A stretch of 64,000 nt of DNA from Eledone cirrhosa (GCA_964016885.1 OZ024742.1:305722001-305786000), one strand, 5' to 3'; shown: positions 13,314-64,000, counted from the first letter of the stretch. The notes: a model not told the origin generated them from the letters alone. Numbers and translations: made by a program.

Positions 13314-13498
13314 TTGGCAGTATCAGTAGAGGGTCGGACGCCATGCTTTGCAGCATAGAGTTACAACCCTTTATGATCTGAGTTCAAATCCCGCCGAGGT
13401 TAACTTCAGCTTTCATCCACACGGGGTCGATAAAATAAAGGACCAGTAATACACTGGGGAAATTGCTGGCCTTGTGCCAAAAGTAGAAACAATTATTA
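13314..13498 (+). mobile_element. SINE family S1
   Basis: A-box-like TGGCAGTATCAGTAG, B-box GAGTTCAAATCC, same body as the other copies. Confidence 0.85.
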
Positions 13499-13921
13499 TC
13501 CCGGTATCTAGATCGGAAAATGTAGGTTGTATCTTTCTATCTTAACATACAATGCTTTCAGAAGAAAATATTTAAAGATGTATGTATAGAAGTCTCTTTG
13601 TACCCTAACGTTCTGATTAGGTAGTATTCCTTATTTCACAGCAAACTAGTAAGCCACCATTTACACGAAGTCTCCAATGCCAATCGGTCTTTCTGTTGCG
13701 TTAGGCATATAAGTTCATTTTCAATATATTGTCTAACTAACCATACGTGTACATTTACACGTGTGAAACACGAAGTAACAATGGATTGAATAACCGTCTC
13801 GTTCTTAATCTTACAAATTCTATTCGTTACACACACACACACACACACATACACACACACACACATATATATATATATATGTATATATATATGTATAATG
13901 CAATCTGAGTTTATCGATTAT

Positions 13922-14078
13922 TAATAATTGTTTCACCTTTTGGCACAAGGCCAGCAATTACCCAGTACATTACTGGTACTTTTATTTTATCGACCCCGTA
14001 AGGATTAAAGGCAAAGTTAACCTCGGCAGGATTTGAACTCAGACCATAAAGGGCCGTAACTCTTTGCTGCAAAGCATT
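13922..14078 (-). mobile_element. SINE family S1
   Basis: Reverse complement of the 13314-13498 body. Confidence 0.85.
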
Positions 14079-14099
14079 ATTATTATTATCGAATAATAA

Positions 14100-14198
14100 T
14101 AACTTTGCCTTTCATCCTTACGGGGTCGATAAAATAAAGTACCAGTGATACACTGGGATAATTGCTGGCCTTATGCCAAAAGTAGAAACAATCATTAT
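14100..14198 (+). mobile_element. 5'-truncated SINE family S1
   Basis: AACTTTGCCTTTCATCCTTACGGGGTCG...AGAAACAAT. Confidence 0.8.
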
Positions 14199-17354: not shown

Positions 17355-17404
<50 letters not shown>

Positions 17405-17562
17405 GAGGAGGTTATAGTTCACTTGAAGCATTGTGTAATGAGGTATAAACGTTTGAATATGTGTAATAAAGCCAAAACAATGCAGGTATGGACATAGAAA
17501 AAAGAATGCAATTGTAAAAGATATTGTTGACATTCGTCCTTTACCTTGAATTTATTTAAATG

Positions 17563-17600
17563 TCCTTAATTTTCGAGATAATATCTCTTCTTCGGAGGGA
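17563..17600 (-). ncRNA. Minimal hammerhead-like motif in the pLTR (sense copy)
   Basis: Minus strand reads CCU-CCGAAGA-A-GAGAU(AUU)AUCUC-GAAA-AU-UA-AGG. Core has U4->C; stem III is minimal and palindromic. Confidence 0.55.
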
Positions 17601-18001
17601 AATAAAGGTCTCAAACCAGCGCTCTAAATATCTAGCCAAGCTATGCTGACAGGAAATAGTATAGAGTATCTGTTCTATCTCTAATATCAAAGAATTAAAA
17701 TTAGGTGGACAAAGAGTAGTCTCCCTTTAAAAGGGGTTTGTTTAGGGTTTTTTTTGTTTTTATTTTATATACATGCCTGTATAAGTGTGTGGGAGAATTC
17801 ATGAAGGTGTAGGTATGTGGGTGTGTGTGTGTGTGAGTGTGAGAAGATAGGTCTATTCGTAAATGTGGGGGGTAGGTGTTATCTGGTGTTAGAACTGGTT
17901 TTGAGTGTGTATGTGTGAGAGAGAATAAGTGGAGGTGTAAGCGTGTGTGTGTGCGCGTGCGTGTGTGTGTGGGTGGTGTAAATATGGGGCTAGAGGCCCT
18001 A

Positions 18002-18892
18002 TCAGGTTATAAATTGGGTGTTGAGTTCTAGTCTATTATTGATTGGTGGTTGTGTTTTATCTATACTTAGTGCTTCCTTAATTCTAAGATTGCCGAGGTT
18101 TCTTTCCTTAGTTTCTATCCTAACTGTTATGGTTTTGTCGGTGTTTTTGCATTTAACTAGGTGTCTCTTAAATGAGGAAGCGTTAGTATTGAGGTGTTCT
18201 TTTATTCTTATGTGGAGTGGTCTGGTGGTGCTACCTACGTAGAAGTTGTTGCATTTGTCACACTCTAGTCTGTATACGACGTAAGCCTGGTGGCATAGGT
18301 CTGTGTCGTTGATGGGGCAGTTGGCTAGTCTGCAGCAGTTGTCATGTCTGGTGGAGTGTCTCTTGGCCAGCCGTCCGCGCAGAGAAGGACCCGAGTGGGC
18401 CAGTTGGATATCCAGTCCCTCTCGTCTGATGGCTCTGCGGATGGCTGTTATTGTTTCTTCACTGAAGTGTGGGAGCTTCAAGAAGCAAGTGTTAGTGCCT
18501 CGGGTGTGGTGTCCTCTGTTCTTTCTGGCACGGTTTGTGGTGGATGTCGCGTATCCGTTCAGTTTGAGTACTTCCAGGAAATGTGTGGTGTGTGTGTCTC
18601 GGTCTCTAGCGTCGGTGCATTTGTTCCTGATACGTGCCAGTTCGTTCCTTATGTATCCGAACTTGGCACCGAGTGGGAGGGCCGATCTGAAATGTACGAA
18701 CAGGTCCCTGCTGGCGGATTTTTTATAGAAGCAGGTGTGGATGTTGCCTTCCTCTGTTACCCTGAGTTGGAAGTCCAGTAGGGATAGGGATCCGCGGTCA
18801 TCGGGGTGTTCCATGCTGAACTTTATACTGGCGTCCATGCTGGAGAATGTTGTGTATACTCTATCTGCCTCCTCACGGGATGATGTCAGCAT
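18002..18892 (-). pseudogene. Penelope-like polyprotein fragment: RT C-terminus/thumb, Cys-rich linker, GIY-YIG endonuclease
   Basis: IKFSME...LSLLD...FYKK...HFRSALP (PLE RT end), CCRLANCP..C linker, VVYRLECDKCNNFYVGSTTRPLHIRIKEH (GIY-YIG), IKEALSI...IN C-terminus. The frame is intact but lacks the RT catalytic core. Confidence 0.9.
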
Positions 18893-18934
18893 GGCTTGGC
18901 TAGATATTTAGAGCGCTGGTTTGAGACCTTTATT

Positions 18935-18972
18935 TCCCTCCGAAGAAGAGATATTATCTCGAAAATTAAGGA
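18935..18972 (+). ncRNA. Minimal hammerhead-like motif in the inverted pLTR
   Basis: tccct ccgaaga a gagat att atctc gaaa at ta agga; the mirror copy of 17563-17600. Confidence 0.55.
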
Positions 18973-19474
18973 CATTTAAATAAATTCAAGGTAAAGGACG
19001 AATTGTCAACAATATCTTTTACAATTGTATTCTTTTTTCTATGTCCATACCTGCATTGTTTTGGCTTTATTACACATATTCAAACGTTTATATATATATA
19101 TATTTATATGGGGGCATGGTGCGTATGTCTGTGTCTGTGTGTGCGTGTGTAAAAAAGAGTGTTGTAGATTGGGTGAAGCGTTGTGGATCGTCAATTACCT
19201 TAACTTGAAAGAAAAAAAAGGTACTAGACGTAACACCACACAGCAGACAACTGCTACACAAGACAAAACAACATCCATATCAAACACACTCAGCATTGTA
19301 ATTATCAACCTGGATCATTTAGTGCAAGAAATGTTGTCATGCCTTCTTTCTAAGAATAACAAAAAACGTCTATCATGACAGTGATGCATATAAATATGTT
19401 TTTAAGGCACATGAACACACAATCTCATATAAATATCTACATATTTATATATATATACACACATGCACACAGTC

Positions 19475-21357: not shown

Positions 21358-21360
<3 letters not shown>

Positions 21361-21560
21361 CAAAGGAACTGTGGTAAGGAACCAGATGGACCATAACGCA
21401 CCAGAGTACTCAATACTTAGGGTAGTAGAGTGGGAAATAGGAAAAAGTATGACACCGACGGCAGAGCTCAAGCCGTTTCGACGGCTATTTCTGGACTAAG
21501 TTAGGATGTTTAGCCTGGTGAATAAATAGCTTAACTTGTCTAGGGGGTCCTTCCTTATAT
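21358..21560 (-). mobile_element. Longer, non-palindromic copy of family A (may extend to ~22118)
   Basis: Reverse complement of tail + arm, continuing past the fold-back points of the other copies. Begins at (TA)n. Confidence 0.75.
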
Positions 21561-22116
21561 GGGAAGATTGTAGTTGTCAAGATGATTCGTTAAAATTTGT
21601 TGTAAACACAAATAAGTCTATCATGGCATTTGGTGGGAGGTAGGGGTGGCGGAACTTGCCTGTAGAACAATAGGGGGGTGATTGGAGCGGTTAAGCGTTG
21701 AAAGTGATATGTATTCATCAGATTCTAAGGATAGTGTATGAAGTGGAGGAGGGAGGTTATAGAATAGGTAAATCGAATGAGAGTAGGAGACAATAAAAGA
21801 TAATAGAAAAAAAATATATATATATAGTGAGAAATGAATAAAAAAATCACAATGCTATCTAACAATTATAGGTTAATAAGTTGAGAATAGAAAAAACTTA
21901 TAGAAATTGAGTAGTACCAGAACTGATACAAAATTAAAGGGGTTTAACACGTCTGCTATAAGTAGTGAGTAAAATGTATTCGGCCAATTCTATCTTAAAA
22001 TCACAGGGGTGGGGGACTGATGCTACAGAGGCCCGATGGGCTGCATCGGGGTAGGCGAATGAGGAAAAGCAGACGAGGAAGAAAATAGGGGGTGGAAGGA
22101 AGTGATCATACTTTTT

Positions 22117-26406: not shown

Positions 26407-26410
<4 letters not shown>

Positions 26411-26601
26411 AACAAGTAAGACCCCGACGGCTGAGCTCAAGCCGTTTCGACGGCTAATTCTGAGTACAGAATTAGCCGTCGAAACGGCTTGAGCTCAGCC
26501 GTCGGGTCTTACTTGTTCCTATTACCCACTCTACTACCCTAAGTATTGAGTACTTTGGTGCGTTATGGTCCACCTGGTTCCTTACCACATTTCCTTCGTT
26601 A
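26407..26601 (+). mobile_element. Fold-back copy of repeat family A
   Basis: Palindrome ~26407-26521 with an AGTA loop, plus the same tail. (TA)n on both sides. Confidence 0.8.
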
Positions 26602-26837: not shown

Positions 26838-28225
26838 TGTTCATGCATGTATGTATGTAAGTATGTTTGTTCATGCATGTATATATGTAAGTATGTATGT
26901 TCGTCTGTGTGAGTGTATATGTGTGTGTGTGTTTATAAACATATACATATATTTGTGTGTATGTGCGTGTAGGCAAACAAATGAAACTATATTTATGAAA
27001 ATATAATTTTATATGATCATAAGAACATGACTGTATATATATATACATATATATAAGAGATGTGTTTAAATATATATATATATATATAAATGGCTGTGTG
27101 TGTGTGTGTAAATGTGTATGTCTAGCACTATTTGATTTTTCTTCTGTTTGATATCTTAGCTCTTCTTTTATCTTTCTTACTCTTCATAAATAATTTCTTT
27201 GATAACCTTCCGCCTGTTTACCACACCACACTCACACACCCACCCATAGTCTCCTCTTTGCTACTTCTGTCTCATATTTCAAAACCGAACCATGGGGCCC
27301 CGACAAACGAGAGATATTTTGGTTAAGCTGATAGGCTAAGAAAGTGCATGGAAGTGATGGAAAAAGATAGAGTTAGCGTTTATATGTGTTTTATATACGT
27401 GTATTTGTGTAAATGTATGAGCTATTGAGAGAGAGAGGGAGAGAGAGAGAGAAGAAAAGACATAGTTGAGCTAAAGAAAGTAATGTACACAAAAATAGGA
27501 AATGAAAGTGAAAGTGAAAATACAGCGTAGAAAGAGGTAAGGGACCAGTGAAGAAGATGATGATGATGAGGCAGGAGGCTTGGCGAGAACTGGTTAATGG
27601 CAACACTAATAAGTTTAATTGACTGGCACAAGTTATTGACCTGAAATTTCGAATAGAGTTAGGGGATAGATAAACATATGGAGTCGGGGGGCTAAATAAT
27701 GGCGGTAGGCTTAATCATTTCACTTTGTTTCCTACTGTATTGTAACTTGTTCTACATGCACTCATGACACTTCTTTGTCACATATGCAAGTATCTGTAAC
27801 TCATGTGAGAACAAATGAATGTGGGTTGTTTCTCACTGCAGGAATTACAATCTAAAGTGAGATAGATTCATACTTTCATCACCATATTTGTAGTAAAATT
27901 CATTGTATTTGAATTGACTAATCCAGAATATCTAGGAATATGATGGCATATAGAATACTTTAAACAAAGGTTTCTTATGTAACTTTTGTTGGAGGATTTT
28001 AATTTAAATAGGAACCATTTGAAATGGGGTGGCGATGTTTCATAGAACAAAAGGGAACATTTGACGGGTTAGTTATAAAATGTTGATGGTATTGGTGTTT
28101 AGTCACAGATCGGAAGTGCTCATGCTGGCCTAGGATAAAATACTTTATATATTCGAACATTGAGCCTATGTTTCTGTACTGAATGCAACATTTTTCAATG
28201 ATCTTACGTTATTTTTGAAAGAGCA

Positions 28226-28409
28226 GTGGATTGGGAGTATTGGTAGAGGGTCGGACACCATGCTTTGCAGCATTGAGGTACAGCCCTTTATGATCTGAGT
28301 TCAAATCCCACCGAGGTTAACATTGCCTTTCATCCTTACGGGATCGATAAGATAAAGTACCAGTAACACACTGGGGTAATTGCTGGCCTTGTGCCAAAAG
28401 TAGAAACAA
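28226..28409 (+). mobile_element. SINE family S1 with a 17-bp TSD
   Basis: TSD TTATTTTTGAAAGAGCA at 28209-28225 and 28410-28426. Confidence 0.88.
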
Positions 28410-29103
28410 TTATTTTTGAAAGAGCAAACTTGATAGAAGGTGATCGAACGATGATAATCATGACGAAATTTAAACGGAACTTCGTTCAATGATGAGTGTT
28501 CCAGTTGTTAGATCAACGGGATGCCCTGTTCCTGAAATTAAAGGGTAACTGGCTGAGTATTCTGAAAAAGCCTTGAGAAAGTGTGTGACAAGTTTGGACC
28601 TAGGAATTATATAAACTGAGATATCTGAGATAATGCCAAACAGATTTCGCCTAATTTCGATAAAAAAGTCATGTACTGAAAAGACGCTACAGTAAAAAAA
28701 AAAAAAAACAATGGAAGATGCCACGTAGTAAGATTGAACCCGTGATTTAATAAATCCAATTTCGATAATTCATAAGGATTATTTCATCCATCTACACTAT
28801 AGCCCATCGGTATATAATACAGCATCTTAAAAAGACGGTATGAAGAATCAATCCGCCGCCATTATAATGATAACACAGACACATGGAATACGAGAGATAC
28901 AGACTTAGGTTCCTCGCCGTTGCCTCATCCCACCTATTCTGCGTTCCTCAATGCAAGTTTCACAATTTTCTACATTATTTATTGTGGTCGACTGTTATTG
29001 CCGTTATTTTCTGCGTTTTGGACTGTCACATCTAAATTCCTAGCACTACCGGCTCTTCAATGACTCATAAGGTTTACATACACACACTCACAAACACACA
29101 CAA

Positions 29104-31750: not shown

Positions 31751-31758
<8 letters not shown>

Positions 31759-31828
31759 AGATCAAAAGATGGTTAAAAGAGTTCCATGTACATGGAACTC
31801 TTTTAAACATCTTTTGATCTTATATATT
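31751..31828. repeat. 78-bp palindrome abutting (TA)n, with a tail to ~31915
   Basis: AATATATAAGATCAAAAGATGGTTAAAAGAGTTCCA-TGTACA-TGGAACTCTTTTAAACATCTTTTGATCTTATATATT. Confidence 0.9.
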
Positions 31829-31932
31829 CTTTATACTCCAGTCCTACAAACTGTAGAGTGCTACTTATCCGATATCTGCTTGCTTTACTGTACTACAATA
31901 AAACTCACTTCCTACATATATATATATATATA

Positions 31933-33088: not shown

Positions 33089-33138
<50 letters not shown>

Positions 33139-33142
<4 letters not shown>

Positions 33143-33216
33143 CCCACTCTACTACCCTAAGTATTGAGTACTCTGGTGCGTTATGGTCCATCTGGTTCCT
33201 TAGCACAACTCCTTCG

Positions 33217-33220
<4 letters not shown>
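33139..33220 (+). mobile_element. Solo tail of family A inside (TA)n
   Basis: ATTACCCACTCTACTACCCTAAG...CTTCGTTA with (TA)n on both sides. Confidence 0.8.
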
Positions 33221-33257
<37 letters not shown>

Positions 33258-35290
33258 TGTGTGTGTGTGTGGGTGTGATGTGTGTGAGTGTAGGAAAAAG
33301 GAGTTGAAGAAGTAGTTGGAGTCTTTGAGAAGGTATTTTTAAAATAACTTAAAACTTTACCGGTTTCACAAGATTTTGGATTTTCAAAGATGTGTGGCTA
33401 TGCTGTCGTATAGCTCGCATATATATATATGTACATGTATATTTATGTATTTATGTACATATGTATATATGTATACACACAAACACACATATATGTTTAT
33501 GTATGTATGTATGTATGTATGTATGTATGTGTGTATATATATATATAGTTATATATATATATATATATACATACATATATGATGGCGGCAAATTCTGCTA
33601 AGAGTATTGCAATTGCTTGTGAGATTCAGATGTGTGCCGCTCGGATATGGCTTGTTAAGCCTGCTAGAGACTTGCACTCCTTCACACACTGACGACAACT
33701 ATGGATCTCCGTATGCATCAGGCTGCTTGTGGACCCTCACAATATCACGCTTATTGTACTGATACAAACGTGTGTATGTATTTGAAAATATTGGTTCCTG
33801 CATGTATATATGTCTGCATATCATAATATCCCATACTTTACGTTGTTCCGTGTAAATTAGAGTCTAATGCTTTGTAAGCAATGTCTCATTCTAAATGTAA
33901 TGTTGTACACCAATCTGCATACACATGAATACATATATATTGGCTAATGGTACAGTTATTCATATACTTATAATATATAATAATACATTTCTCTACCTTC
34001 AATTCTTTCACTCGTATAGTCAAATATACTTATACACAGGCAGATGCTTACATATAAATATATATTGTATGTATGTCTATCTATGTGTATCTTTGTGTCG
34101 ATACATACACATGCACACACATATATATCTATGTATATCAACACATTTGTATAAACACACACATATGTACATATATATATGTGTGTATGTTTTTGAGTGT
34201 CTGTGAGTGTGTGTGTTTATACAACGATCTAAATATGTTTGTTTATATATATATACATTGACACAACGTGTATATATGTATAGATATCTATATCTATCGA
34301 TCTATCCATATATATATATATGTATGTATATGTATTTCTATATATAAATATATATATATATATGTATATATATATGTATATATATATATGTGTGTGTGTA
34401 TGTGTGTGTAGCTATGTATATGTTATGTGAGTATCTATATTTATACGCAGTTATCTATCTTTCTTCTGGGAAACGACAATCAATATATAGCCACAAGGGA
34501 ACATGCCAAGAAGATGTCATCTATATAATATTGGATTGTGTTTTAGAATTTTATTCAAGTTTTCATTTGAGTTGTATTGAAATGCCACGACTATCTTTAT
34601 TCCTTGTCCATTGAAGGCAGCAGATAAGGTGTGGTAGGAGTAAAAGTAAAAATTTAGAAAAAAATTAAATAATCGATTATGAATTAACAAATATATAAAC
34701 AGGGAATTCCAAACGTGTGGCTATCTCACCCATTCATAGTTTAGATGCATATATAAATATACATACATGTATATCTATTCATATATATATATATATATAT
34801 ATATTGTGTGTGTTTGTGTATGTGTATGTACACAGGAAAATGACAATGAATAAAACGGATAGACGGACAGTCCCATCTTCTGAGTCAACCTCTGGAAGTT
34901 ACTACAGTTTCGGTATTGTTCATTCTAACACACATTGGAACAGAACAAAACTGGTTATACCCCTAGGCAAATCACACAAATACAGAGTGTGTAAGGTCTT
35001 AGCCAAAGGAGGAAAAAAATTAAGTCGAAAATAGTTAAACTGAAGTGAATAATAAGGACTCTAGTGCAACGTGCAGACAAAAAAGAAGGACACTAAGGCG
35101 TAGGAAAATTAAGAAGAGAGAAAAAAGGGAAAGAGGCTGGGTAGTGTGATGTCCATTATATATATATATATATATATATATAAAGGATGCCTCTCTATAT
35201 ATGGAGTAACCTATGTGTATTTCATCTATGACTGGATTTCTCGGATGTCCATGTCTATATCTATCCGTCTATCTATCTATCTATCTATTT

Positions 35291-37213
35291 ATAGGGTCGA
35301 CCATGGTTACCTGGATGCGGTGCTAGCGGCGGCAGTCTTCGGACCCGTTTTCAGGGGCTGGATCAATGCCATGCACAGCAGCCACATCTGCTCTAGGGTC
35401 AAGGTGAATGGCTACCTCTCGGAGCCGTTCGAAATCGTGCGGTCCATCCGACAGGGGTGCCCTCTCTCCTCCCTTCTGTATGTAATGACTCTAGAGCCAC
35501 TGCTGCGGAAGTTGGAGTTGTTGCAGGGCATCCCGTTGGAACCGGGATTGCGGAAAGCAGTGTCAGCCTACGCCGATGACGTAACAGTAATGGTGTCGAC
35601 GGCCTCGGAAATCGGGGCGATCGGCACCTTACAGGAGGAGTACGAAAGTTTTACAGGGGCTAAGCTGAACCGGGACAAGTCGATCGGTCTGCAACTCGGC
35701 ACGTGGAGGGGCAGATCGATGCCCTCCGATGGCGTCGTCGGGCGCTGGACGGAGGGCCCGGTGAAGTTGCTCGGGGTCTGGTTCGGACCAGACCTCCAGG
35801 TGGAGAAGAACTGGGGTGAGGTGACGAACAGGGTGTTTGCACTGACCCAGAAGTGGGCCGAGTGCAAACTGTCCCTGAAAGGTCGGGCGGAGGTGGCGAG
35901 AACTTATATAGCGTCTGTCATCTACTACCGCCTAACCGTTGTGCCTTGCCCAAGGGAAACGCTCGCCAAAATGGAGCGCGCACTCTTCCAATTCCTTTGG
36001 AAGAAGCGGGCTCCTATGGTGAGGAGATCCATCTGCTGTCAACACCCTTCGAAAGGAGGGCTGGGGATGCCGTGGCTAATGATACGTAAACACGCATTAA
36101 GGCTACGGCACCTTCAGGTATTCCTCTCCGGTCAACCGGTGTGGGCCCCGTTTGTGAGGCGAGCCTTTCCCAGACTCGTCTTACTCATCGAGCTGCAATC
36201 CTGGGTCAAGCAAAGACCGAGAAAACTGGGCGCCTGGCACACCGAGTGTGCCCAGGCGCTCACGGCTCTCTGGCAGGCGGACCCGGCTGTCAGTGGAGAA
36301 TCCACCTCGTCATTCTATAGAGGGCTGGTGGTTAGCAGGTGCGACGACGCCCTCGGAGAAGCCCTAGTCATGGAGGAAGACGAACTGGCCAACCTGTTCG
36401 GTAGGACATTCAGCCCGGGACCCATGGATAACTTCCAGAGGTCCCTGGCCTGGCAATGCTACAGAAGGGCTCTGCCCGTTCGAGAAAGGCTCTACAGACA
36501 CGGGCGCCCGGGTAGGGACCCATCGAAAAAGATCTGTCCCAGATGCGTGTGCGACGAGGAAACCGTTGCACACGCACTGGTACACTGCTCGGGCATTGCC
36601 GATCTGTGGGGCTATGTCGAACAACTGCTGTCAAGGGTGGGACCGATCCGGTTGACCACCGAGTCTATTGTAACGATCAAGCCGCCTCCCCTCTTCAAAA
36701 ACGAAGGAGAGGCGGTGTTTCTGTGCGTAATAGCCATGGCGAAAGAGGTTGTATGGTGGACGCGTCTGAAAGGACTGATGTCAGACACCTTTCTCTCTGG
36801 CCAACAACTGGTTCGTTTCTTCCGATATCATTTCGGAAGAAGGATCAGGATGGAGAGAGAGGTGCTGCACCCCAGCCGTTTCTATGAAAGATGGGTGAAA
36901 GTGGCGAGAATGGCCCGTGTGAATGGGCCTTCACTCTACATGAGACTATAGGTGAGGAAGATGAAAGACCAAGGGAGCACCCCTTCTCTCTGCTCCTGAG
37001 GAGAAGGGTTGCACACTTTTTTCGGGGGTGTGTGCGACCCCCCAAGACGCCTCCTCTCTATTGAGGACTTTGTTATAAATTTTATTTTTTGTTATATTTT
37101 ATTTTATTTTTATATATTGTTATTGCCTCCTCCTTATTGAGGACGCCTTGTTTTGTAAACTCCCCCCATTGTACTTGTCCCACTTTTGATGCCCTGGTGG
37201 CAAATAAAAGAAA
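35291..37213 (+). mobile_element. 5'-truncated copy of the same Tx1-like family (RT 3' half + 3'UTR), in (ATCT)n
   Basis: Aligns by eye to 49859-51781 starting at ATAGGGTCGACC. The frame is open to the stop at 36951. Short (ATCT)n at ~35268-35288 upstream and long (ATCT)n at ~37217-37317 downstream. Confidence 0.93.
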
Positions 37214-41860: not shown

Positions 41861-42069
41861 TATACGGACGTGCTTGTGTAGGTACGGGTGTGTGTGGACG
41901 GGAAGGGGCAGTTAGGCGCCTACTATCAGGTGTTGTCAGGTAAAATATGTCCAAAACTTATGTAACCGAATCTTCATCGCTTTCCTTAATATATATATCT
42001 ACATATATATATATATATATACATACATACACACACACACATACACACACACACATATATATATATATA

Positions 42070-42135
42070 TGTATTAATTCTGTACACACAAGTCATTCAA
42101 TATGTATATGTTTAAACCTCCACAGATACCTATGG

Positions 42136-42193
<58 letters not shown>

Positions 42194-42259
42194 CCATAGG
42201 TATCTGTGGAGGTTTAAACATATACATATTGAATGACTTGTGTGTACAGAATTAATACA
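42070..42259. repeat. Perfect palindrome centred on a (TA)n tract
   Basis: ~72-bp unique arms, exactly inverted around (TA)n at ~42142-42186. Confidence 0.9.
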
Positions 42260-42372
42260 CATATACTTCTTTTTCCACATACATTCATATACTTAATACA
42301 GCGTTGAGTAAAATGGTGTATTAATATAATATACACATAAATATACGTATACATATTTCTAAACGCACACAT

Positions 42373-46275: not shown

Positions 46276-48057
46276 ATGGCCGAAGCCTCTTCACCAAAAT
46301 TCGAAGGAGGAAAGGGGAAGATGAACTTACAGCTTCCCCCTGCCACTGTCACAGTAGCAGAGGTCAAGAAGATAGGTCAGCCAGAGGAAGAATTCTCTCC
46401 ACCTGTTAACCGACAACTTGACGTTACCATGGCAACAACCCAAAGAACCAACAGCAACAACAACAACAATGCGACGGTAGAAAACAACACCAATAACAAT
46501 AACAATAACAACAACAAGACCAATAACGGTGACAACAACAACAATGATAACAACAACACCACCAACGACAACAACAACACAAACAAACAAAATTTCTCCT
46601 TCGCCGAGACGACAAGGAAAACCCTCGACTATCTGCCAGTAGATATAACAAAAGCGAAGGAGCTACTGGCGGATGCGAAAAAATATATAGTGTACGGGGA
46701 AAATGGTTCATTCACAATCCATTCCCCCCCGGAACTAAAAAGCCAGAGACTCCTAAACACGGTCATGTTTAGGACAATCTCGAACAAAAGTAAAAAACCA
46801 GCTCAACCATCACAGAGCGAGATAGAGCTGGTTTTAAAAGACGTCATGAAGGACATCACCTTCATTCAGAAGGATAGACTCTACGGGAGTCTATCCATTC
46901 TCATGAAGGACAGGGACACAGCAGTGAAACTGTCCATCAAACCAATCACATCCACCGCATACACCTTCTACCCTACGTACATGGGTAGAAGAACACAAAA
47001 AATAAAAATCCACACCATCCTGCCGATTATGGACATATGGTGGGTTTTGACAGGTTTTCTGGACCTGGAGGATGACATGCTGGTGTCCATGGGAAAGGCA
47101 TCGGGTGACGCGTTCAGTGGAACGAGCCTCGAACTTGTAGTTCAAATGAGGCCCGAAAGGATCGCCCAGATCCCTGAACGCGTCATACTGGATGATCTAA
47201 CCTTCATCAACATTACCGTTGAGGGTAGACGGCCCTCGTGTTACCTCTGCGGAACCAGAGGTCACCTGAGGGCTGTCTGTCCCCAACTTAATAAGAAAAC
47301 CCCAATCCTGCCTACACCACCAACAACTGCACAACCAACACAATCACCACAACAACCACTACAAAAACAACCACCACAGCTCAAACCAAAACAAAACAAT
47401 GTCCAACCCATCCCCTCCACTCAAAAAACAAAAACAATTTCCAAAACACCCGTACCGCAAACACAACCCGAAAATATACCCCTCCCCTCCAACGCGGAAG
47501 ATGACCCTAGTTCGTCGTCAGACGAGGAGGAGCACTTCCACACAATCAAAAGAAAAAAAAGAAAACACACCTCAGACACACAAATGAAAAAAACCCCTCC
47601 CCAAAACATAACACTGACACCAACACAAAAGAGCTCACAACAGCAAACAAAAAACACCACACAAAAACAAAAACATGCATACACATACATAAATACAAGA
47701 AACAAAAAACTGTTAAACATTGTGTACAACAACAATCTAATAAAAACACAAGGGCCTAACTTCACCCAGGCAGGGGATTTCCCCCACCTCAAAATGATTA
47801 AGGCCCCACAGGACACCTATAAAACTTTAAAAAACAATTTTAAAGAGGACGTGGGTCCCCCCTGCGTCGGGCCCATTAACCGAGTCCTCCTAAAAAACTA
47901 TCCCACCCCCTCCCCAAACACCCTCACAACTCCAAGCTCCCCAACCACACAACACACTGATGCCCCCACACTTCCACAAACCACCACCCCACCCAACAAC
48001 CCATCCCCCACCCTAATGGAAATTGTGCAGCCCGATACCCGGGACGCAGAGAGGTAA
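46276..48057 (+). CDS. LINE ORF1, gag-like nucleic-acid-binding protein (593 aa)
   Basis: CX2CX4HX4C knuckle CYLCGTRGHLRAVC preceded by ITVEGRRPS. Has an Asn-rich N-terminal tract, a Pro/Gln/Thr-rich linker and a basic KRKKRK patch. Sits directly 5' of ORF2. Confidence 0.88.
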   Translation: MAEASSPKFEGGKGKMNLQLPPATVTVAEVKKIGQPEEEFSPPVNRQLDVTMATTQRTNSNNNNNATVENNTNNNNNNNNKTNNGDNNNNDNNNTTNDNNNTNKQNFSFAETTRKTLDYLPVDITKAKELLADAKKYIVYGENGSFTIHSPPELKSQRLLNTVMFRTISNKSKKPAQPSQSEIELVLKDVMKDITFIQKDRLYGSLSILMKDRDTAVKLSIKPITSTAYTFYPTYMGRRTQKIKIHTILPIMDIWWVLTGFLDLEDDMLVSMGKASGDAFSGTSLELVVQMRPERIAQIPERVILDDLTFINITVEGRRPSCYLCGTRGHLRAVCPQLNKKTPILPTPPTTAQPTQSPQQPLQKQPPQLKPKQNNVQPIPSTQKTKTISKTPVPQTQPENIPLPSNAEDDPSSSSDEEEHFHTIKRKKRKHTSDTQMKKTPPQNITLTPTQKSSQQQTKNTTQKQKHAYTYINTRNKKLLNIVYNNNLIKTQGPNFTQAGDFPHLKMIKAPQDTYKTLKNNFKEDVGPPCVGPINRVLLKNYPTPSPNTLTTPSSPTTQHTDAPTLPQTTTPPNNPSPTLMEIVQPDTRDAER

Positions 48058-48081
48058 GTGCCTTTTCTCTTCACCACCAAC

Positions 48082-51000
48082 ATGGCTATGCTAAGAGTAG
48101 GCTGTTTAAATGCGCGTGGCCTGGGCTCAACTTGGAAGCAAGCAATGCTTCTAAATGACCTCAGGTCACAACGTATAGATGTGATGGTTATTTGCGAGGC
48201 CCGGATCAGCAACGTGCGACAGCTGGCCCCCACCTTTGATGACTTTGAGATGCACGCATCTCTCTGTCAGCCTGGAGGTGGGGGTGGAGTTGTCGTTCTG
48301 CTGCAAAAACATCTGGGTCTCGCAACACAGATGGTACATTTGGACCCGGAGGGTCGACTAGTGGTTCTGGACCTTGGCAGTGGTAAAGGCGGAGCGTTTA
48401 GGTTGGTAGCCGCCTACGGCCCTTTCGGGTCAATGCGGCCGGACTTCTTCCATCGTCTGGAGACTTTTCTAGGGACGTCCCGCTCCTTGCTATTAGTGGG
48501 GGACTGGAATGGTATCCTAGATGCACGCTGGGACTACGTAGGGGCCTGCCCCGATAGAGAGGGGTGTAATAGCCTCAAAGGGTTAATCGGTCGATTTGAC
48601 CTGGCCGATAGATATCGACTAGATTTTCCGACTGCGCCAACCTGGACTTGGGCAAATCGTAGCGGATCATCTAGGTCGTACCTAGATAGGTTCTTAGTTA
48701 GAATTAAGGATAAGGACTTTTTAAGTTGTCCAAAAATGCGCATTGTTGGCTATTCAGACCACAAATTAGTGACCTGCATGGTCAACCTTGACAGAACTCA
48801 TAGACAGGGCCCCGGTTACTGGAAGCTCAACTTGTCCTTGCCGGCAAGTAGAGCCTACAGGAATCGGATTAGTACGTTAGTTAAGGAACGGTTGACTGGA
48901 GCGATCGTCAACAGCAGGTGGTGGGTATCTCTAAAGAGAGAGATTAGAGTAGTCTCGATAGAATTTAGTAAGGTTCTAGCTGCGGATAGGAATAGGAAGG
49001 AAAGGGAGCTAATAGATAGAGTAGAAGAGGCAATTAGAAGCGGCGACGTGGCCAGAGTGCTAGCGTCGAGAACGGCGTTGAGCCAGTTTTTCGACGCGAA
49101 GCACGAAGGCTGCGTTGTCCGAAGTAAAATACGTGCTCTAGGGAACGAGGGGACCAAAGCTGTTAGCTGGGCCCGCGTGACAGAGGCCAACAGTGGAACT
49201 AAATCCACCATCCGGTCTTTGCGAGACCTGGATGGACGGGCGATTCTTGAGCCTAAGCAGATGTGTGAGGCCTTTCAAAGGCACTTTGCCCGACTGTTCG
49301 GGAGGGGCGGGGAGCCGGTTGGGAACGTGGACTTCGGTCCATACCTCGACGGCCTGCCGCGCCTCTCGGACAGGGAGGCGAAGTCCTGCGAGGAGCCGAT
49401 TTCGGCCGCTGAGATAGAGGACGTGCTGAGCCAATGCGGCAAACGCAAATCCCCGGGTCTCGATGGTCTTCCTTACGAATTATATCTAGCTATGCCGGAC
49501 TTGTTCCCCGATCTCCTCGAGGCGGTCTACTGCAACTGGCAACAGAACGGGAGAATTCCCTGTACTGTGACCAAGGGCGTAGTCACGCTAGTGAGGAAGG
49601 ACGAGAACAAGGGGGACGAAATAAGTAACTTCAGGCCCATAACACTGCTAAATACAGAGTTACAGATTTTGGCCAAGGTGCTAGCAAAGAGGTTGGCGCT
49701 TGTCGTGGGCAACCTGGTGGGAGATGCGCAGACATGCGCTATCCCGTCCAGGTCCATCCATGACAACCTCCACCTCATGCGATACATCATAGAGAGGGTT
49801 GGGAACGAACCCGGCTTTGGTGGGGCTCTGATCAACTTGGATCAATCTAAGGCGTTCGATAGGGTCGACCATGGTTACCTGGATGCGGTGCTAGCGGCGG
49901 CAGGCTTCGGACCCGTTTTCAGGGGCTGGATCACTGCTATGCACAGCAGCCGCATCTGCTCTAGGGTCAAGGTGAACGGCTACCTCTCGGAGCCGTTCAA
50001 AATCGAGCGGTCCATCCGACAAGGGTGCCCTCTCTCCTCCCTTCTGTATGTGTTGACTCTCGAGCCACTACTGCGGAAGTTGGAGTTGTTGCAGGGCATC
50101 CCTTTGGAACCGGGATTGCGGAAAGCGGTGTCGGCCTACGCCGATGACGTGACAGTAATGGTGTCGACGGCCTCCGAAATCGAGGCGGTCGGCACCTTAC
50201 TGGAGGAGTACGAAAAGTTCACAGGGGCTAAGCTGAACCGGGACAAGTCGATCGGTTTGCAACTCGGCACGTGGAGGGGCAGACCGATGCCCTCCGATAG
50301 CGTCGTCGGACGCTGGACGGAGGGCCCGGTGAAGTTGCTCGGGGTCTGGTTCGGACCGGACCTCCAGGTGGAGAAAAACTGGGCGGAGGTTACGAACAGG
50401 GTGTTTGCACTGACCCAGAAGTGGGCCAGTTGCAAACTATCCCTGAAAGGTCGGGCGGAGGTGGCGAACACCTACATAGCGTCCGTCATCTACTACCGCC
50501 TGACCGTAGTGCCCTGCCCAAGGGAAACCCTCACCAAGATGGAGCGCGCGCTCTTCCAATTCCTTTGGAAGAGGCGGGCTCCTATGGTGAGGAGATCCAT
50601 CTGCTGTCAACACCCTTCGAAAGGAGGGCTGGGGATGCCGTGGCTAATGATGCGTAAACACGCATTAAGGCTACGGCACCTCTACGTATTCCTCACCGGA
50701 CAACCGGTGTGGGCCTCGTTTGTGAGACGAACCTTTCCCAGACTCGTCTCACTCACCGAGCTGCAATCCTGGGTCAAGCAAAGACCGAGAAAACTGGGCG
50801 CCTGGCTCACTGAGTGTGCCCAGGCGCTCACCGCCCTCTGGCAGGCGGATCCGGTTATCAGTGGAGACTCCACCGCAACATTCTATAGAGGGCTGGTACG
50901 CAGCAGGTGCGACGACGCCCTCGGAGAAGCCCTAGACATGGAGGAGGACGAACTGGCCAGCCTGTTCGGTAGGACATTCAGCCCGGGACCTATGGACAAC

Positions 51001-51519
51001 TTCCAGAAGTCCCTGGCCTGGCAGTGCTACCGAGGGGCTTTACCCGTTCGAGAAAGGCTCTACAGACACGGGCGCCCGGGAAGGGACCCCGCCAAAAAGA
51101 TCTGTCCCAGATGCGTGTGCGACGAGGAAACCGTTGCACACGCATTGGTACACTGCTCGGGCGTAGCCGATCTGTGGGGCTATGTCGAACAACTGCTGTC
51201 AAGGGTGGGACCGATCCGGTTGACCACCGAGTCGATTGTAATGATCAAGCCGCCTCCCCCCTTCAAAGATGAAGCAGAGGCGGTGTTTCTGTGCGTAATA
51301 GCCATGGCGAAAGAGGTTGTATGGTGGACGCGTCTGAAAGGACTGAGGTCAGGCACCTTTCTCTCTGGCCAACAACTGGTCCGTTTCTTCCGATATCATT
51401 TCGGAAGAAGGATCAGGATGGAGAGAGAGGTGCTGCACCCCAGCCGTTTCTATGAAAGATGGGTGAAAGTGGCGAGAATGGCCCGTGTGAATGGGCCTTC
51501 ACTCTACATCAGACTATAG
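48082..51519 (+). CDS. LINE ORF2: APE endonuclease + reverse transcriptase + C-terminal Cys/His domain
   Basis: APE motifs LNARGL, ICE, GDWN, SYLDRF, SDH. Linker GPGYWKLN. RT motifs KSPGLDG, FRPITLLN, LDQSKAFDRVDH, IRQGCPLS, YADD. C-terminal CPRC...ETVAHALVHC. First ATG is at 48082; the frame is open from 48058. Confidence 0.95.
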   Translation: MAMLRVGCLNARGLGSTWKQAMLLNDLRSQRIDVMVICEARISNVRQLAPTFDDFEMHASLCQPGGGGGVVVLLQKHLGLATQMVHLDPEGRLVVLDLGSGKGGAFRLVAAYGPFGSMRPDFFHRLETFLGTSRSLLLVGDWNGILDARWDYVGACPDREGCNSLKGLIGRFDLADRYRLDFPTAPTWTWANRSGSSRSYLDRFLVRIKDKDFLSCPKMRIVGYSDHKLVTCMVNLDRTHRQGPGYWKLNLSLPASRAYRNRISTLVKERLTGAIVNSRWWVSLKREIRVVSIEFSKVLAADRNRKERELIDRVEEAIRSGDVARVLASRTALSQFFDAKHEGCVVRSKIRALGNEGTKAVSWARVTEANSGTKSTIRSLRDLDGRAILEPKQMCEAFQRHFARLFGRGGEPVGNVDFGPYLDGLPRLSDREAKSCEEPISAAEIEDVLSQCGKRKSPGLDGLPYELYLAMPDLFPDLLEAVYCNWQQNGRIPCTVTKGVVTLVRKDENKGDEISNFRPITLLNTELQILAKVLAKRLALVVGNLVGDAQTCAIPSRSIHDNLHLMRYIIERVGNEPGFGGALINLDQSKAFDRVDHGYLDAVLAAAGFGPVFRGWITAMHSSRICSRVKVNGYLSEPFKIERSIRQGCPLSSLLYVLTLEPLLRKLELLQGIPLEPGLRKAVSAYADDVTVMVSTASEIEAVGTLLEEYEKFTGAKLNRDKSIGLQLGTWRGRPMPSDSVVGRWTEGPVKLLGVWFGPDLQVEKNWAEVTNRVFALTQKWASCKLSLKGRAEVANTYIASVIYYRLTVVPCPRETLTKMERALFQFLWKRRAPMVRRSICCQHPSKGGLGMPWLMMRKHALRLRHLYVFLTGQPVWASFVRRTFPRLVSLTELQSWVKQRPRKLGAWLTECAQALTALWQADPVISGDSTATFYRGLVRSRCDDALGEALDMEEDELASLFGRTFSPGPMDNFQKSLAWQCYRGALPVRERLYRHGRPGRDPAKKICPRCVCDEETVAHALVHCSGVADLWGYVEQLLSRVGPIRLTTESIVMIKPPPPFKDEAEAVFLCVIAMAKEVVWWTRLKGLRSGTFLSGQQLVRFFRYHFGRRIRMEREVLHPSRFYERWVKVARMARVNGPSLYIRL

Positions 51520-51834: not shown

Positions 51835-52391
51835 TTTTCTATCTATCTCTCTTTCTAGTCCTGTAGAAGTCATTTCTATATTAAATATTTATACTCTGCT
51901 ATGTATTGAGTACCTTACTTAGTGTGGTTACCCCCGATTGAACCCGGGATAAACTTATATATATATATATATAGTAATAATAATAAATTTGAAGACTAAA
52001 ATCCAAAGAGGGTTCGATAAGGATAAATATCTATCAAATATATAACAACACTAGAGCAAATATTTATTAAAATAACAGATTAAAGTTTAAGCAAAGAATC
52101 GGGGCTTTCACCCTATATATATATATACGTGTGTGATCCACTAAAGACATACTTGAATGTATATCATTGCACCGAAGCACTATACATCCAATAACATTTT
52201 GGTAATTTACACTACTTGCTGTCAATCTTAATGTTATGATTTATAAAATAGTTCATTAAATTGATCTAAGGCTCTTAGTTCTTTTAATCGAAAAAATAAA
52301 GTCGAACATGAACACTAAATTTATATATATATATATATATAATATTAAAATATAAATATTAATAAAATAGATGTTCTTTTGATCAATTACA

Positions 52392-52442
52392 TTTTACTAT
52401 ACATATTTCGGATGTACAACAGTACGTCCTCATCAGACAAAA
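52392..52442 (-). ncRNA. Hammerhead ribozyme candidate in the left arm of the palindrome
   Basis: Reverse-complement copy of 52562-52612 with one change in stem I. Confidence 0.68.
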
Positions 52443-52561
52443 TATAATGATACATGACATACCCTCAGATGTTAAATGGTTAAGATTTAATCAAGGTAGT
52501 AAATCTTAACCATTTAAATCTTAACCATTTAACATCTCAGGGTATGTCATGTATCATTATA

Positions 52562-52612
52562 TTTTGTCTGATGAGGACGTACTGTTGTACATCCGAAATA
52601 TGTATAATAAAA
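52562..52612 (+). ncRNA. Hammerhead ribozyme candidate in the right arm of a palindrome
   Basis: UUUUGU-CUGAUGA-GGACGUAC(UGUU)GUACAUCC-GAAA-UAUGUA-UA-AUAAAA. Stem I is 6 bp; stem II pairs 7 of 8. Confidence 0.72.
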
Positions 52613-52781
52613 TGTAATTGATCAAAAGAACATCTATTTTATTAATATTTATATTTTAATATTAATAACTCCGGAAAATTATTTTTCGTAGAGTGCTTCC
52701 AATCTACTGTAAAACTCATTCTTTGACATACTCCTTGAATATTGTTTAACACTTTAATATATATATATACATATGTACATC

Positions 52782-52979
52782 TAGGAAAAAGTATGACCCC
52801 GACGGCAGAGCTCAAGCCGTTTCGACGGCTATTTCTGGACTCCAGAAATAGCCGTCAAAACGGCTTGAGCTCTGCCGTCGGGGTCATACCTTTTCCTATT
52901 ACCCACTCTACTACCCTAAGTATTGAGTACTCTGGTGCGTTATGGTTCATCTGGTTCCTTACCACAATTCATTCGTTAT
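52782..52979 (+). mobile_element. Fold-back copy of repeat family A (GAAACGGCTTGAGCTC family)
   Basis: Palindrome 52782-52898 centred on 52840, plus an ~80-bp tail TTACCCACTCTACTACCCTAAG...TTCGTTA running into TA repeats. Confidence 0.8.
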
Positions 52980-53010
52980 ATATACACACACATATATATA
53001 TATATATATA

Positions 53011-53242
53011 TGAAATTAGAAATATAATCTATCGCCGTATTTTGACTAAAGAAATTAAAGAAATTATTTAGCCTAATAGTGGGGTTAAGAACCCTCGGAG
53101 AAATGGAAAAAGATGAGTATTGACGTATGTCAATACTCATCTTTTTCCATTTCTCCGAGGGTTCTTAACCCCACTATTAGGCTAAATAATTTCTTTAATT
53201 TCTTTAGTCAAAATATGGCGATAGCTTATATTTCTAATTTCA
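53011..53242. repeat. Near-perfect 232-bp palindrome next to (TA)n
   Basis: Arms of ~114 bp centred on GAC-GTAT-GTC (53126/53127) with few mismatches. Short tail to TA repeats at ~53277. Confidence 0.9.
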
Positions 53243-53729
53243 AAACTCGCTCGCTGTTTCGAAAATATTCTTACTATAATATATATATATATTATATATT
53301 TTTAAAATCATTTCTCTGTAACACATAAGTATAATGTGGCTGATTGTAAAGTGTAGTGTTTAAGGTAGCCACAAAAAATTGGTTTCGTTATTGTTCATCT
53401 AGTAGAACTATTTACAACAAGCTTTATCTAATTTCAGATTCTTTTCGTAATATAGTTGTAGAATTAAAGCGGAAAACTGATATTTATATTCTTAAAATCC
53501 CCTTTGCCATTGGCATACTTATATGTTTCGTTTACAATTAATTTGTTTTTATTTATCATAGGAAACTTATTAAATACAATTTTTTACACCTATCCTCATT
53601 TCCTTTAAGTTGTGAGTTAGTTATATTTAAAATATATATTAATTACAACTTTTTGTTTATAAGAAGATTTTTCTACTTAACACACTGGCAATTTTACGTC
53701 ATATTGACTAAAACTATAGCCCCCCCCCC

Positions 53730-61837: not shown

Positions 61838-62026
61838 TGGAGAATTGGCAGTATCGATAGAGTGTGGGACGCCGTGCTTTCCATCATAGAGTTAGGCCCC
61901 TTTATGGTCTGAGTTCAAATCCCGTCGAGGTTAACTTTGCCTTTCATCCTTACGGGGTCAATAAAATAAAGTACCAATGATGCACTGGGAAAATTGCTGG
62001 CCCTGTGCCAATAGTAGAATCAATTG
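61838..62026 (+). mobile_element. SINE family S1
   Basis: Same head and body; imperfect TSD CAATTRTTCATAAC. Confidence 0.85.
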
Positions 62027-62112
62027 TTCATAACCATCTGAAACCTTACAGAACCTCATTTGCGCGCCATATCATTCTTGAGTCTCTTCTTCTTTTTATG
62101 GAACGGGCCTCG

Positions 62113-63205: not shown

Positions 63206-63219
63206 TATAGATATATATA

Positions 63220-63401
63220 TAGGAACAAGTAAGACCCCGACAGCTGAGCTCAAGCCGTTTCGACGGCTAATTAGCCGTCGAAACGGCTTGAGCTCAGCTG
63301 TCGGGGTCTTACTTGTTCCTATTACCCACTCTACTACCCTAAGTATTGAGTACTTTGGTGCGTTATGGTCCACCTGGTTCCTTACCACATTTCCTTCGTT
63401 A
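63220..63401 (+). mobile_element. Fold-back copy of repeat family A
   Basis: Perfect palindrome 63220-63321 centred on CTAA|TTAG, plus the same tail. (TA)n flanks. Confidence 0.8.
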
Positions 63402-63574
63402 GATATATATATATATTTATTAAAATAACAGATTAAAGTTTAAGCAAAGAATCGCTGCTTTCACCCTTAACGGGATCTTCTGAAACTAACAAAGTCAATC
63501 TGTAAACGCAGAACTGAATATTTCAAAAAACGTTGCAACCGGAGGAAAACAGGAAAACGATACTTTGGTTCGTG

Positions 63575-63838: not shown

Positions 63839-64000
63839 ACTAACTAGGAGACCAAATGAATCTCCGCTACAGAGTTAAGAACAAAGTAAATAAATACAAT
63901 ACAGAAGTAATAGAAATAAATAAATACATACACGCAAACATGTATGTATTTATTTATTTCTATTACTTCTGTATTGTATTTATTTACTTTGTTCTTAACT

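Follow-up and report, generated by a model that had tools for sequence, protein, structure and literature searches.

Insertions of Penelope-like elements (PLEs) have been described with an inverted truncated copy, a tail on one side only, and a bias for (TA)n targets (PMC8969392, and the accessible portions of PMC8557442 and PMC3846280). Among the closest described systems are the C-terminal-nuclease PLEs of the Hydra clade, which insert in (TA)n and include an octopus family; Hydra-1_Obim is one of the members. In the accessible text of Craig et al. (PMC8557442), this clade is marked by an RWK-type motif, DKT, a CxCX5C linker, the absence of GxKF and CCHH, and the (TA)n target. It has in common with families A and B described below RW(K/R), DKT, CxCX5C, the lack of GxKF and CCHH, a hammerhead (putative here) in the pLTR, the (TA)n target, an inverted 5'-truncated copy and a one-sided tail, and differs in its published tails, which are 30-40 nt long against 80-95 nt here, and in that most copies here are stubs of 150-450 bp, numbering tens of thousands. 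The same source names the origin of the inverted structures and of the tail as an open problem.

For Poseidon of Anolis, Frangieh et al. 2024 described a PLE protein that cuts and extends both strands in vitro, with two internal start sites that bound the tail, a predicted dimer, uncleaved RNA as the preferred template, and an AT-rich target; the accessible part of that paper does not treat the inverted structure and reports no start-site homology (PMC11167929), whereas both start sites of our families are TA and match the target. In Penelope of the rotifer Adineta vaga, the accessible text of Arkhipova et al. 2013 (PMC3846280) describes head-to-head inverted pLTRs with junction palindromes, a 31-bp tail, and a pLTR with a TATA box and an Inr-like TCACT, all of which have counterparts here; it proposes antisense self-priming, whereas the cap-like G reported below points to a capped sense template. 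An internal promoter is established for the Drosophila Penelope (PMC2377424), and hammerhead pairs on opposite strands, 100-700 bp apart, as well as a U3-A8 variant of the hammerhead core, have been noted previously (PMC4209133).

We analysed a stretch of 64,000 nucleotides from Eledone cirrhosa (GCA_964016885.1 OZ024742.1:305722001-305786000), hereafter the window. The original prediction for this DNA described a recurring layout of inverted arm, fold-back, and arm with tail between (TA)n tracts, found across unrelated families and stacked three times in 1 kb, and attributed it to PLEs. A local inverted-repeat scan of the window recovered all seven inverted structures that had been cited, with arms 96.6-100% complementary. 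The annotated features are as follows.

51853-51957, plus strand: family F, single copy (short arm and tail) reaching up to (TA)n; F palindromes exist elsewhere.
51975-52114, minus strand: family H copy with TA tracts on both sides; a second copy lies at 63413-63485.
52322-52339, no strand: (TA)n target, left flank of the family B copy.
52340-52500, minus strand: family B, inverted arm lacking a tail; with its inner end, 52500, it reaches precisely the predicted +1, which is the A of the TCACT initiator.
52501-52664, plus strand: family B, sense arm, beginning near +12; 15 nt are duplicated at the junction; by eye, it contains a type I hammerhead motif, core CTGATGAG at 52568-52575 and GAAA at 52595-52598.
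52665-52757, plus strand: family B, tail of 95 nt, its terminus an internal TA.
52758-52781, no strand: TA-rich spacer separating B from A.
52782-52841, minus strand: family A, untailed arm extending to the predicted +1; at the join the two arms overlap by a single G, which could derive from the cap.
52842-52898, plus strand: family A, sense arm from +4, containing the 3' half of a predicted hammerhead.
52899-52978, plus strand: family A, tail of 80 nt, its terminus an internal TA.
52979-53010, no strand: (TA)n/(CA)n tract separating A from C.
53011-53124, minus strand: family C, inverted arm without a tail.
53129-53242, plus strand: family C, sense arm; this copy lacks the tRNA-like head and begins at that head's 3' foot.
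53243-53277, plus strand: family C, tail; tandem copies elsewhere continue into the next tRNA-headed unit.
26407-26601, plus strand: family A palindrome; the tailed arm begins at +1 (26463) after a G.
63219-63401, plus strand: family A, palindrome without mismatches whose centre is an AATT overlap.
31751-31915, plus strand: family D palindrome, with arms of 39 nt and a tail of ~88 nt; the junction lies far short of the D start site.
17403-19092, minus strand: family E, 5'-truncated PLE, comprising an inverted pLTR (18884-19092), the end of the ORF (18002-18907, thumb and GIY-YIG), a pLTR (17444-17651) and a 41-nt tail (17403-17443).

The arm pairs returned by the scan within the stack were 52340-52490/52514-52664 for family B (arm 151, 98.7%), 52782-52839/52841-52898 for family A (arm 58), and 53011-53124/53129-53242 for family C (arm 114). 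Outside the stack, 26423-26462/26467-26506 is the ungapped core of the family A palindrome at 26407-26601, the pairs 63219-63270/63271-63322 and 31751-31789/31790-31828 belong to A and D, respectively, and 17444-17651 pairs with 18884-19092, flanking the GIY-YIG ORF of family E (PF01541, E 5.6e-6). As had been claimed, one arm stops at a TA beside (TA)n and the other continues past that point, the extension being 80 nt (A), 95 nt (B), 39-51 nt (C), ~88 nt (D) and 41 nt (E), and the repeated layout stood at every cited site. The description of the families as unrelated needs to be narrowed: A, B, C, D, and E are distinct, but the structures at 52782, 26407, and 63220 are all family A. The stack of three in 1 kb is present and in fact larger, with pieces of two more families (F and H, neither linked to an ORF) at 51853-52114.

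The window holds other repeats as well. Further family A pieces comprise a long 5'-extended copy at 21360-21742 (minus strand) and a tail-only copy between TA tracts at 33137-33217. Two additional low-complexity palindromes lie at 63873-64000, cut by the window end, and 42064-42265. An abundant short repeat, which resembles a cephalopod SINE, occurs at 13314-14197, 1283-1490, 28209-28416, and 61838-62028, several times as inverted pairs. A seemingly intact two-ORF LINE (46276-51519, plus strand; ORF1 of 593 aa, followed by a frame of 1153 codons that encodes APE, RT, and zf-RVT) terminates just upstream of the stack, and a LINE fragment lies at 35113-36951.

The proposed link of the arms to PLEs with RT and GIY-YIG domains was borne out by contiguous ORFs for A, B, D, and E. 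The family A tail continues in frame into a 786-codon PLE frame at locus L033, and the family B tail precedes a frameshifted Hydra-type PLE ORF, related to that of A, at L130. Family D is collinear over 1.56 kb with the end of a GIY-YIG ORF at two loci (L237/L238), and family E has intact frames of 900-905 codons (RVT_1 E 5.5e-16, GIY-YIG E 3.5e-5). The contiguous ORFs of A, B, and D carry YRDD and GIY-YIG-type motifs and are 32-45% identical to one another. In a motif search, RWR, DKT, and CxCX5C were present in the ORFs of both A and B, and the GxKF and CxxC-GIY patterns were absent from that of A; family E has GxKF, DKG, and CxxC within the nuclease, which are marks of a canonical PLE clade, be it Penelope/Poseidon, Neptune or Nematis. 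Neither Pfam nor PDB returned a match to the ORFs of A and B, and their designation as RT is based on motifs, on 2223 unnamed homologues, one cluster of which includes a jellyfish member, and on a by-eye match to Hydra-1_Obim. Partial tandems forming pLTRs together with an inverted 5'-truncated copy were found at L033, L123-L126, and L134. Judged by their contiguous ORFs, families A, B, D, and E are of PLE origin, and by their predicted motifs A and B carry the marks of the Hydra clade; the attribution of all families to PLEs does not extend to family C, which has neither an ORF nor a hammerhead core. The architecture as such has been described before, and these families add to its members; what sets them apart is the scale, the tails of 80-95 nt, the cap-like G, and the tRNA-headed passenger. 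Among the family E loci, L123:738-9050 is an 8-kb head-to-head insertion with two uninterrupted 900-codon frames.

Palindromes of this kind might be fold-back artefacts of assembly or library preparation, and since the whole 1-kb stack was spanned by no read or contig, the stack locus itself rests on the assembly. We regard an artefactual origin of the palindromes as hardly credible, because their arms diverge by 1-4% and their ends are family-specific. Raw reads of another sample cover the centre type of 52840 in family A (16+8 reads), families A, B, and C are present in contigs of a second organism, and one of these contigs has a fold-back junction at the same family A start site. The two fixed outer ends of family A, each followed by (TA)n, also occur in raw reads from three other samples (L033:3109, 3189). 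A 30-fold step in RAD-seq depth near the A start site was discarded as evidence: it sits on an AATT, where most molecules end, and is likely a restriction cut because molecules also end at the next AATT.

The families of the three stacked palindromes (A, B, and C) have thousands of copies each in the 3.0-Gb genome, in agreement with the abundance that had been foreseen. Pattern counts, which are lower bounds on copy number and for which reversed control patterns gave 0, returned 33,606 exact matches to the family A arm and, with one mismatch, 2,592 to the B arm, 1,782 to the C arm, and 11,054 to the D tail. Sixty evenly spaced 10-kb stretches of the genome (600 kb) were searched for inverted repeats with arms of at least 30 nt and loops of at most 100 nt, simple repeats excluded. 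Among the 51 non-simple short-loop inverted repeats found, 31 have (TA)4+ within 10 nt of one end, against a null of 2.9%, which upholds the proposed (TA)n enrichment, and 21 (41%) show the full arm and tail layout, against a null of 0.7%. These 21-31 cases per 600 kb extrapolate to roughly 105,000-155,000 palindromes in the genome, with arms making up ~0.9% of bases. At least six further unnamed families with the same layout occur in the sample (L140, L147, L155, L156, L166, L177, L178, and L189), and by eye several of their tails share an ACTC...GAGT pair near the tail start.

The insertion hotspot that had been proposed is modest. Palindromes are spread over the stretches with mild clumping (variance/mean 1.54, p 0.005), and their number per stretch tracks TA-tract density (r 0.38). 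At 17/150 family A loci, a B, C, or D copy is found no more than 500 nt away, compared with 15/540 random tiles (2.8%) and 67/871 TA-centred tiles (7.7%). The excess over TA-centred tiles is present but modest, and from this comparison the stack is mainly an effect of a shared TA target.

The geometry of head-to-head pairs was analysed in families A, B, and C (n=109). Exactly one tail is present in 101 of the 109 pairs (A 55/57, B 7/8, C 39/44), with two tails in 4 and none in 4 (p 1e-21 versus independent choice), and the outer ends of both arms are fixed internal TA sites. Any target-site duplication would be masked by the (TA)n on either side. Both arms are of the same subtype in 47/48 A pairs, against 35% expected, in a test with effectively one main diagnostic column and a set that includes loci picked for the commonest junction; arms within an A pair differ at 1.2 of 43 sites, versus 4.2 between loci. 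Where arm lengths differ by more than 5 nt, the untailed arm is the longer in 44 pairs and the tailed one in 22 (p 0.009). The tail folds no better than shuffled sequence (z -0.9 to 0.4).

A spread of fixed non-autonomous units, either MITE-like or descending from a single master palindrome, could account for the fact that the commonest A junction recurs in 515 exact copies. These compare with 33,606 arm matches, and 30 loci with this junction, which represent at least four subtypes, comprise 19 in which the shorter arm bears the tail, 10 in which the longer arm does, and 1 that has no tail; because of this spread over subtypes and sides, the centres appear to be rebuilt at each insertion. The centres range from 0 to several kb, so that the fixed length, fixed centre, and symmetrical TIRs of MITEs and DNA transposons are lacking, and the arms run into PLE ORFs. 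The fixed centres that would have spoken against the PLE interpretation are therefore absent, and the fixed-unit explanation, which we rate as very improbable, is largely refuted. In a separate observation, L047 holds a tandem array of solo A copies, three in number, all of which begin at +2 after an identical TA flank and apparently arose by later tandem duplication.

The inner ends of the arms vary in position, with preferred sites. In family A, 45/115 inner ends fall 11-15 nt upstream of the anchor, and the last position of this pile-up is the A(+1) of TTTAGTC (predicted start at L033:3049) or TTCAGT; at -29, long copies have TATTTAAA or a sequence close to it. About 10 truncated copies among the 43 listed for family B begin at (A)CTACC of the conserved TCACT, with a TATA box ~31 nt upstream; one of them is a perfect palindrome, and the B arm in the window ends exactly there. 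Most truncated copies among the 32 listed for family D begin at or within 2 nt of TCA(+1)TATG, and no clear TATA box was seen at this site. These pile-ups look like Pol II starts inside the pLTR, and the junctions would predict such start sites to the base. Another 23/115 A ends lie within 10 nt of the anchor, and the window copies at 63219 and 31751 also stop short of +1; junctions short of +1 imply that processivity or trimming also acts.

Hammerhead core motifs were recognised by eye in families A (the U3-A8 variant), B, D, and E, and predicted folds give stems for A and B; a scan at Rfam gathering level, covering the window and 7 loci, returned none. By motif and fold, the family A hammerhead (L033:2994-3104) has the U3-A8 core in full copies and a long stem III. 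Its stem II loop contains the predicted transcription start, so that the A leader would be unable to form the ribozyme; the B leader contains a hammerhead motif, yet cDNAs pass through it. In 3/55 tailed A arms the end falls at the predicted ribozyme cut (18-19 nt) and the partner arm is longer, which fits two RNAs or a stall at the hairpin. Folding back of the cDNA on hammerhead stem II was considered and then abandoned, as the inner ends proved to pile up at the TATA/Inr site.

The base preceding +1 was counted in families A and B. For solo A copies that start from +1 behind a TA tract, 100 listed among 202 matches, the preceding base is G 51 times, T 33 times, A 11 times, and C 5 times. The T and C are templated, and the G is non-templated, being absent at -1 in 21/21 long A copies. 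With a control start at +5, G precedes in 1/100 (of 151 matches, 100 listed; Fisher p 5e-18 versus +1), and the genomic background rate of G is 215/1,851. Family B shows the same base before +1 most often (G 15, C 6, T 4, A 2; n=27). Among palindromes with arms ending at +2 and +1 (100 listed of 296), 43 are perfect, 22 carry G, 2 carry A, and none carries C; where both arms are complete and 2 nt lie between them, G is found on at least one arm in 28/36 loci and on both arms in 7. Reverse transcriptases add C opposite the m7G cap. The extra G suggests copying of the 5' end of a capped mRNA, and a CG centre, with G on both arms, could arise by copy-back of one capped-end cDNA. The papers covered, with subscription papers and Repbase mostly outside their range, contained no prior description of a cap-like G or of twin priming in PLEs.

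From the junctions, the G, and the in vitro reaction of the Poseidon protein taken together, we consider it probable that the palindromes are short PLE insertions in (TA)n, in which two cDNAs from one capped sense mRNA have been joined head to head. On a single such mRNA, each of the two TA start sites would base-pair with one 3' end of the cut (TA)n target, one cDNA being primed at the arm-end TA and the other at the tail-end TA, and two antisense cDNAs would be made. Both would run toward the RNA 5' end, often copying the cap, and would be joined head to head, presumably by end-joining on 0-4-nt overlaps; the trailing, tail-side cDNA would have to displace the leading one and would more often be the shorter. 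The stubs would be short because the RT start sites sit in the pLTR-ORF junction, close to the predicted cap in the leader, the distances from the predicted cap to the two start sites being 60 and 140 nt in A and ~163 and 258 nt in B. A start in the 5' pLTR would give stubs, and a start in the downstream pLTR would give long and full-length copies. In L1 twin priming, the other target strand likewise primes a cDNA on the RNA already in use, producing an inversion, and each cDNA copies its own part of that RNA; here, by contrast, the two would overlap fully from two fixed starts, producing a palindrome with a tail.

The fold-back mechanism put forward in the original prediction is probably wrong, since two separately primed cDNAs agree better with the data. 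One version of it is a snap-back, in which a single first-strand cDNA off a capped RNA folds and is copied, and a nuclease trims one end at the internal TA; the accessible text of Craig et al. ascribes the tail to nuclease-mediated resolution (PMC8557442). A snap-back would explain the identical arms, the near-equal inner ends (at most 5 nt apart in 26/55 A pairs), and the CG centres. It is nevertheless unlikely in our view, as a copied arm cannot exceed its template, yet the untailed arm is the longer in 44 pairs, and in some pairs the tailed copy stops within the tail; zero-loop palindromes and G on one arm only are frequent, and each of the two outer ends also occurs in solo copies.

Self-priming on an antisense transcript, whose 3' end folds back and primes, is the published account of head-to-head junctions in the rotifer Penelope, as given in the accessible text (PMC3846280), and the junctions here often lie on short palindromic words (AATT, CATG, GTAC). 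The antisense 3' end predicts neither the coincidence of the A and B centres with a sense TATA/Inr nor the non-templated sense-strand G, and this route is disfavoured, and to our mind quite unlikely, because the cap-like G points to a capped sense template.

Family C would, under the preferred scheme of two cDNAs primed on one RNA, likely be a passenger that is not autonomous, has a Pol III-type tRNA head, and uses the same machinery. The unit, 272 bp long, is non-coding, its longest open frame having 74 codons; longer copies show it arranged head to tail and head to head, and neither strand has a hammerhead core. Its head is a 73-74-nt cloverleaf, positive in ARAGORN at 7/8 loci and scoring 30.6-47.6 bits for RF00005 against a gathering score of 29, and the tRNA-related head with A and B boxes and the lack of an ORF are those of a tRNA-derived SINE. 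The head pattern has 2,541 genome matches, and 30/30 of those examined lie in a C unit; the 1006 forward versus 1535 reverse matches suggest one large same-strand array. A run of T5 directly after the tRNA should stop Pol III.

The inner ends of C copies form two piles. The first lies 2-9 nt before the tRNA (11/52 head-bearing copies; 11/36 truncated), as expected of a putative Pol III start, and the second lies at the foot of the T arm, where the window copy belongs, as expected of a stall on folded RNA or of joining on local palindromic words. A stop at m1A58 was also considered and rejected in view of the lack of a sharp peak of inner ends.

An ordinary LINE-driven SINE or a tRNA-gene satellite, with inverted copies from later rearrangement, would account for a tRNA-like head above the Rfam gathering score, and no PLE partner was found for C: run-through tails lead into the next tRNA unit in 28/30 cases, into a broken unit in 1, and into unrelated DNA in 1, and relaxed BLAST with family C returned only C subfamilies among the matches listed. 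We think this origin improbable, since C shares with A and B the two fixed TA ends, the single tail (39/44 pairs), the partial tandems, and the (TA)n flanks, and a LINE-type 3' end is absent, the copies having two fixed internal TA ends, inverted and tandem arrangements, and no poly(A). The nearest parallels to C, a small non-coding tandem unit that appears to ride on PLE enzymes, are animal non-LTR retrozymes (PMC7229834; bioRxiv 10.64898/2026.07.22.740005) and the SINE-like hammerhead repeats of Schistosoma (PMC6765202), described in the accessible text with a Pol III promoter and tandems. C differs from both, as far as these sources go, in having a complete tRNA-like cloverleaf and no hammerhead core. 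No description of a tRNA SINE moved by Penelope was found in the literature covered, which left subscription papers and Repbase mostly outside. Repeat pipelines would file family C as a SINE or a MITE.

Octopus has exceptional hairpin potential and hyper-editing, and Penelope is heavily edited in lizard (PMC5625713); the stubs could be a main substrate for RNA editing. The cap-like G, the single tail per pair, and the matched arms amount to a specific model that can be tested in the existing in vitro system. It seems to us an even chance that this genome is a population-scale record of PLE integration, in which both target ends prime on a single capped sense mRNA, mostly in its 5' leader and as far as the cap, with the element's transcription start written into ~100,000 palindromes, that these palindromes are a major supply of near-perfect hairpins for editing, and that family C is a Pol III SINE of a PLE, representing a class of ribozyme-free parasites.
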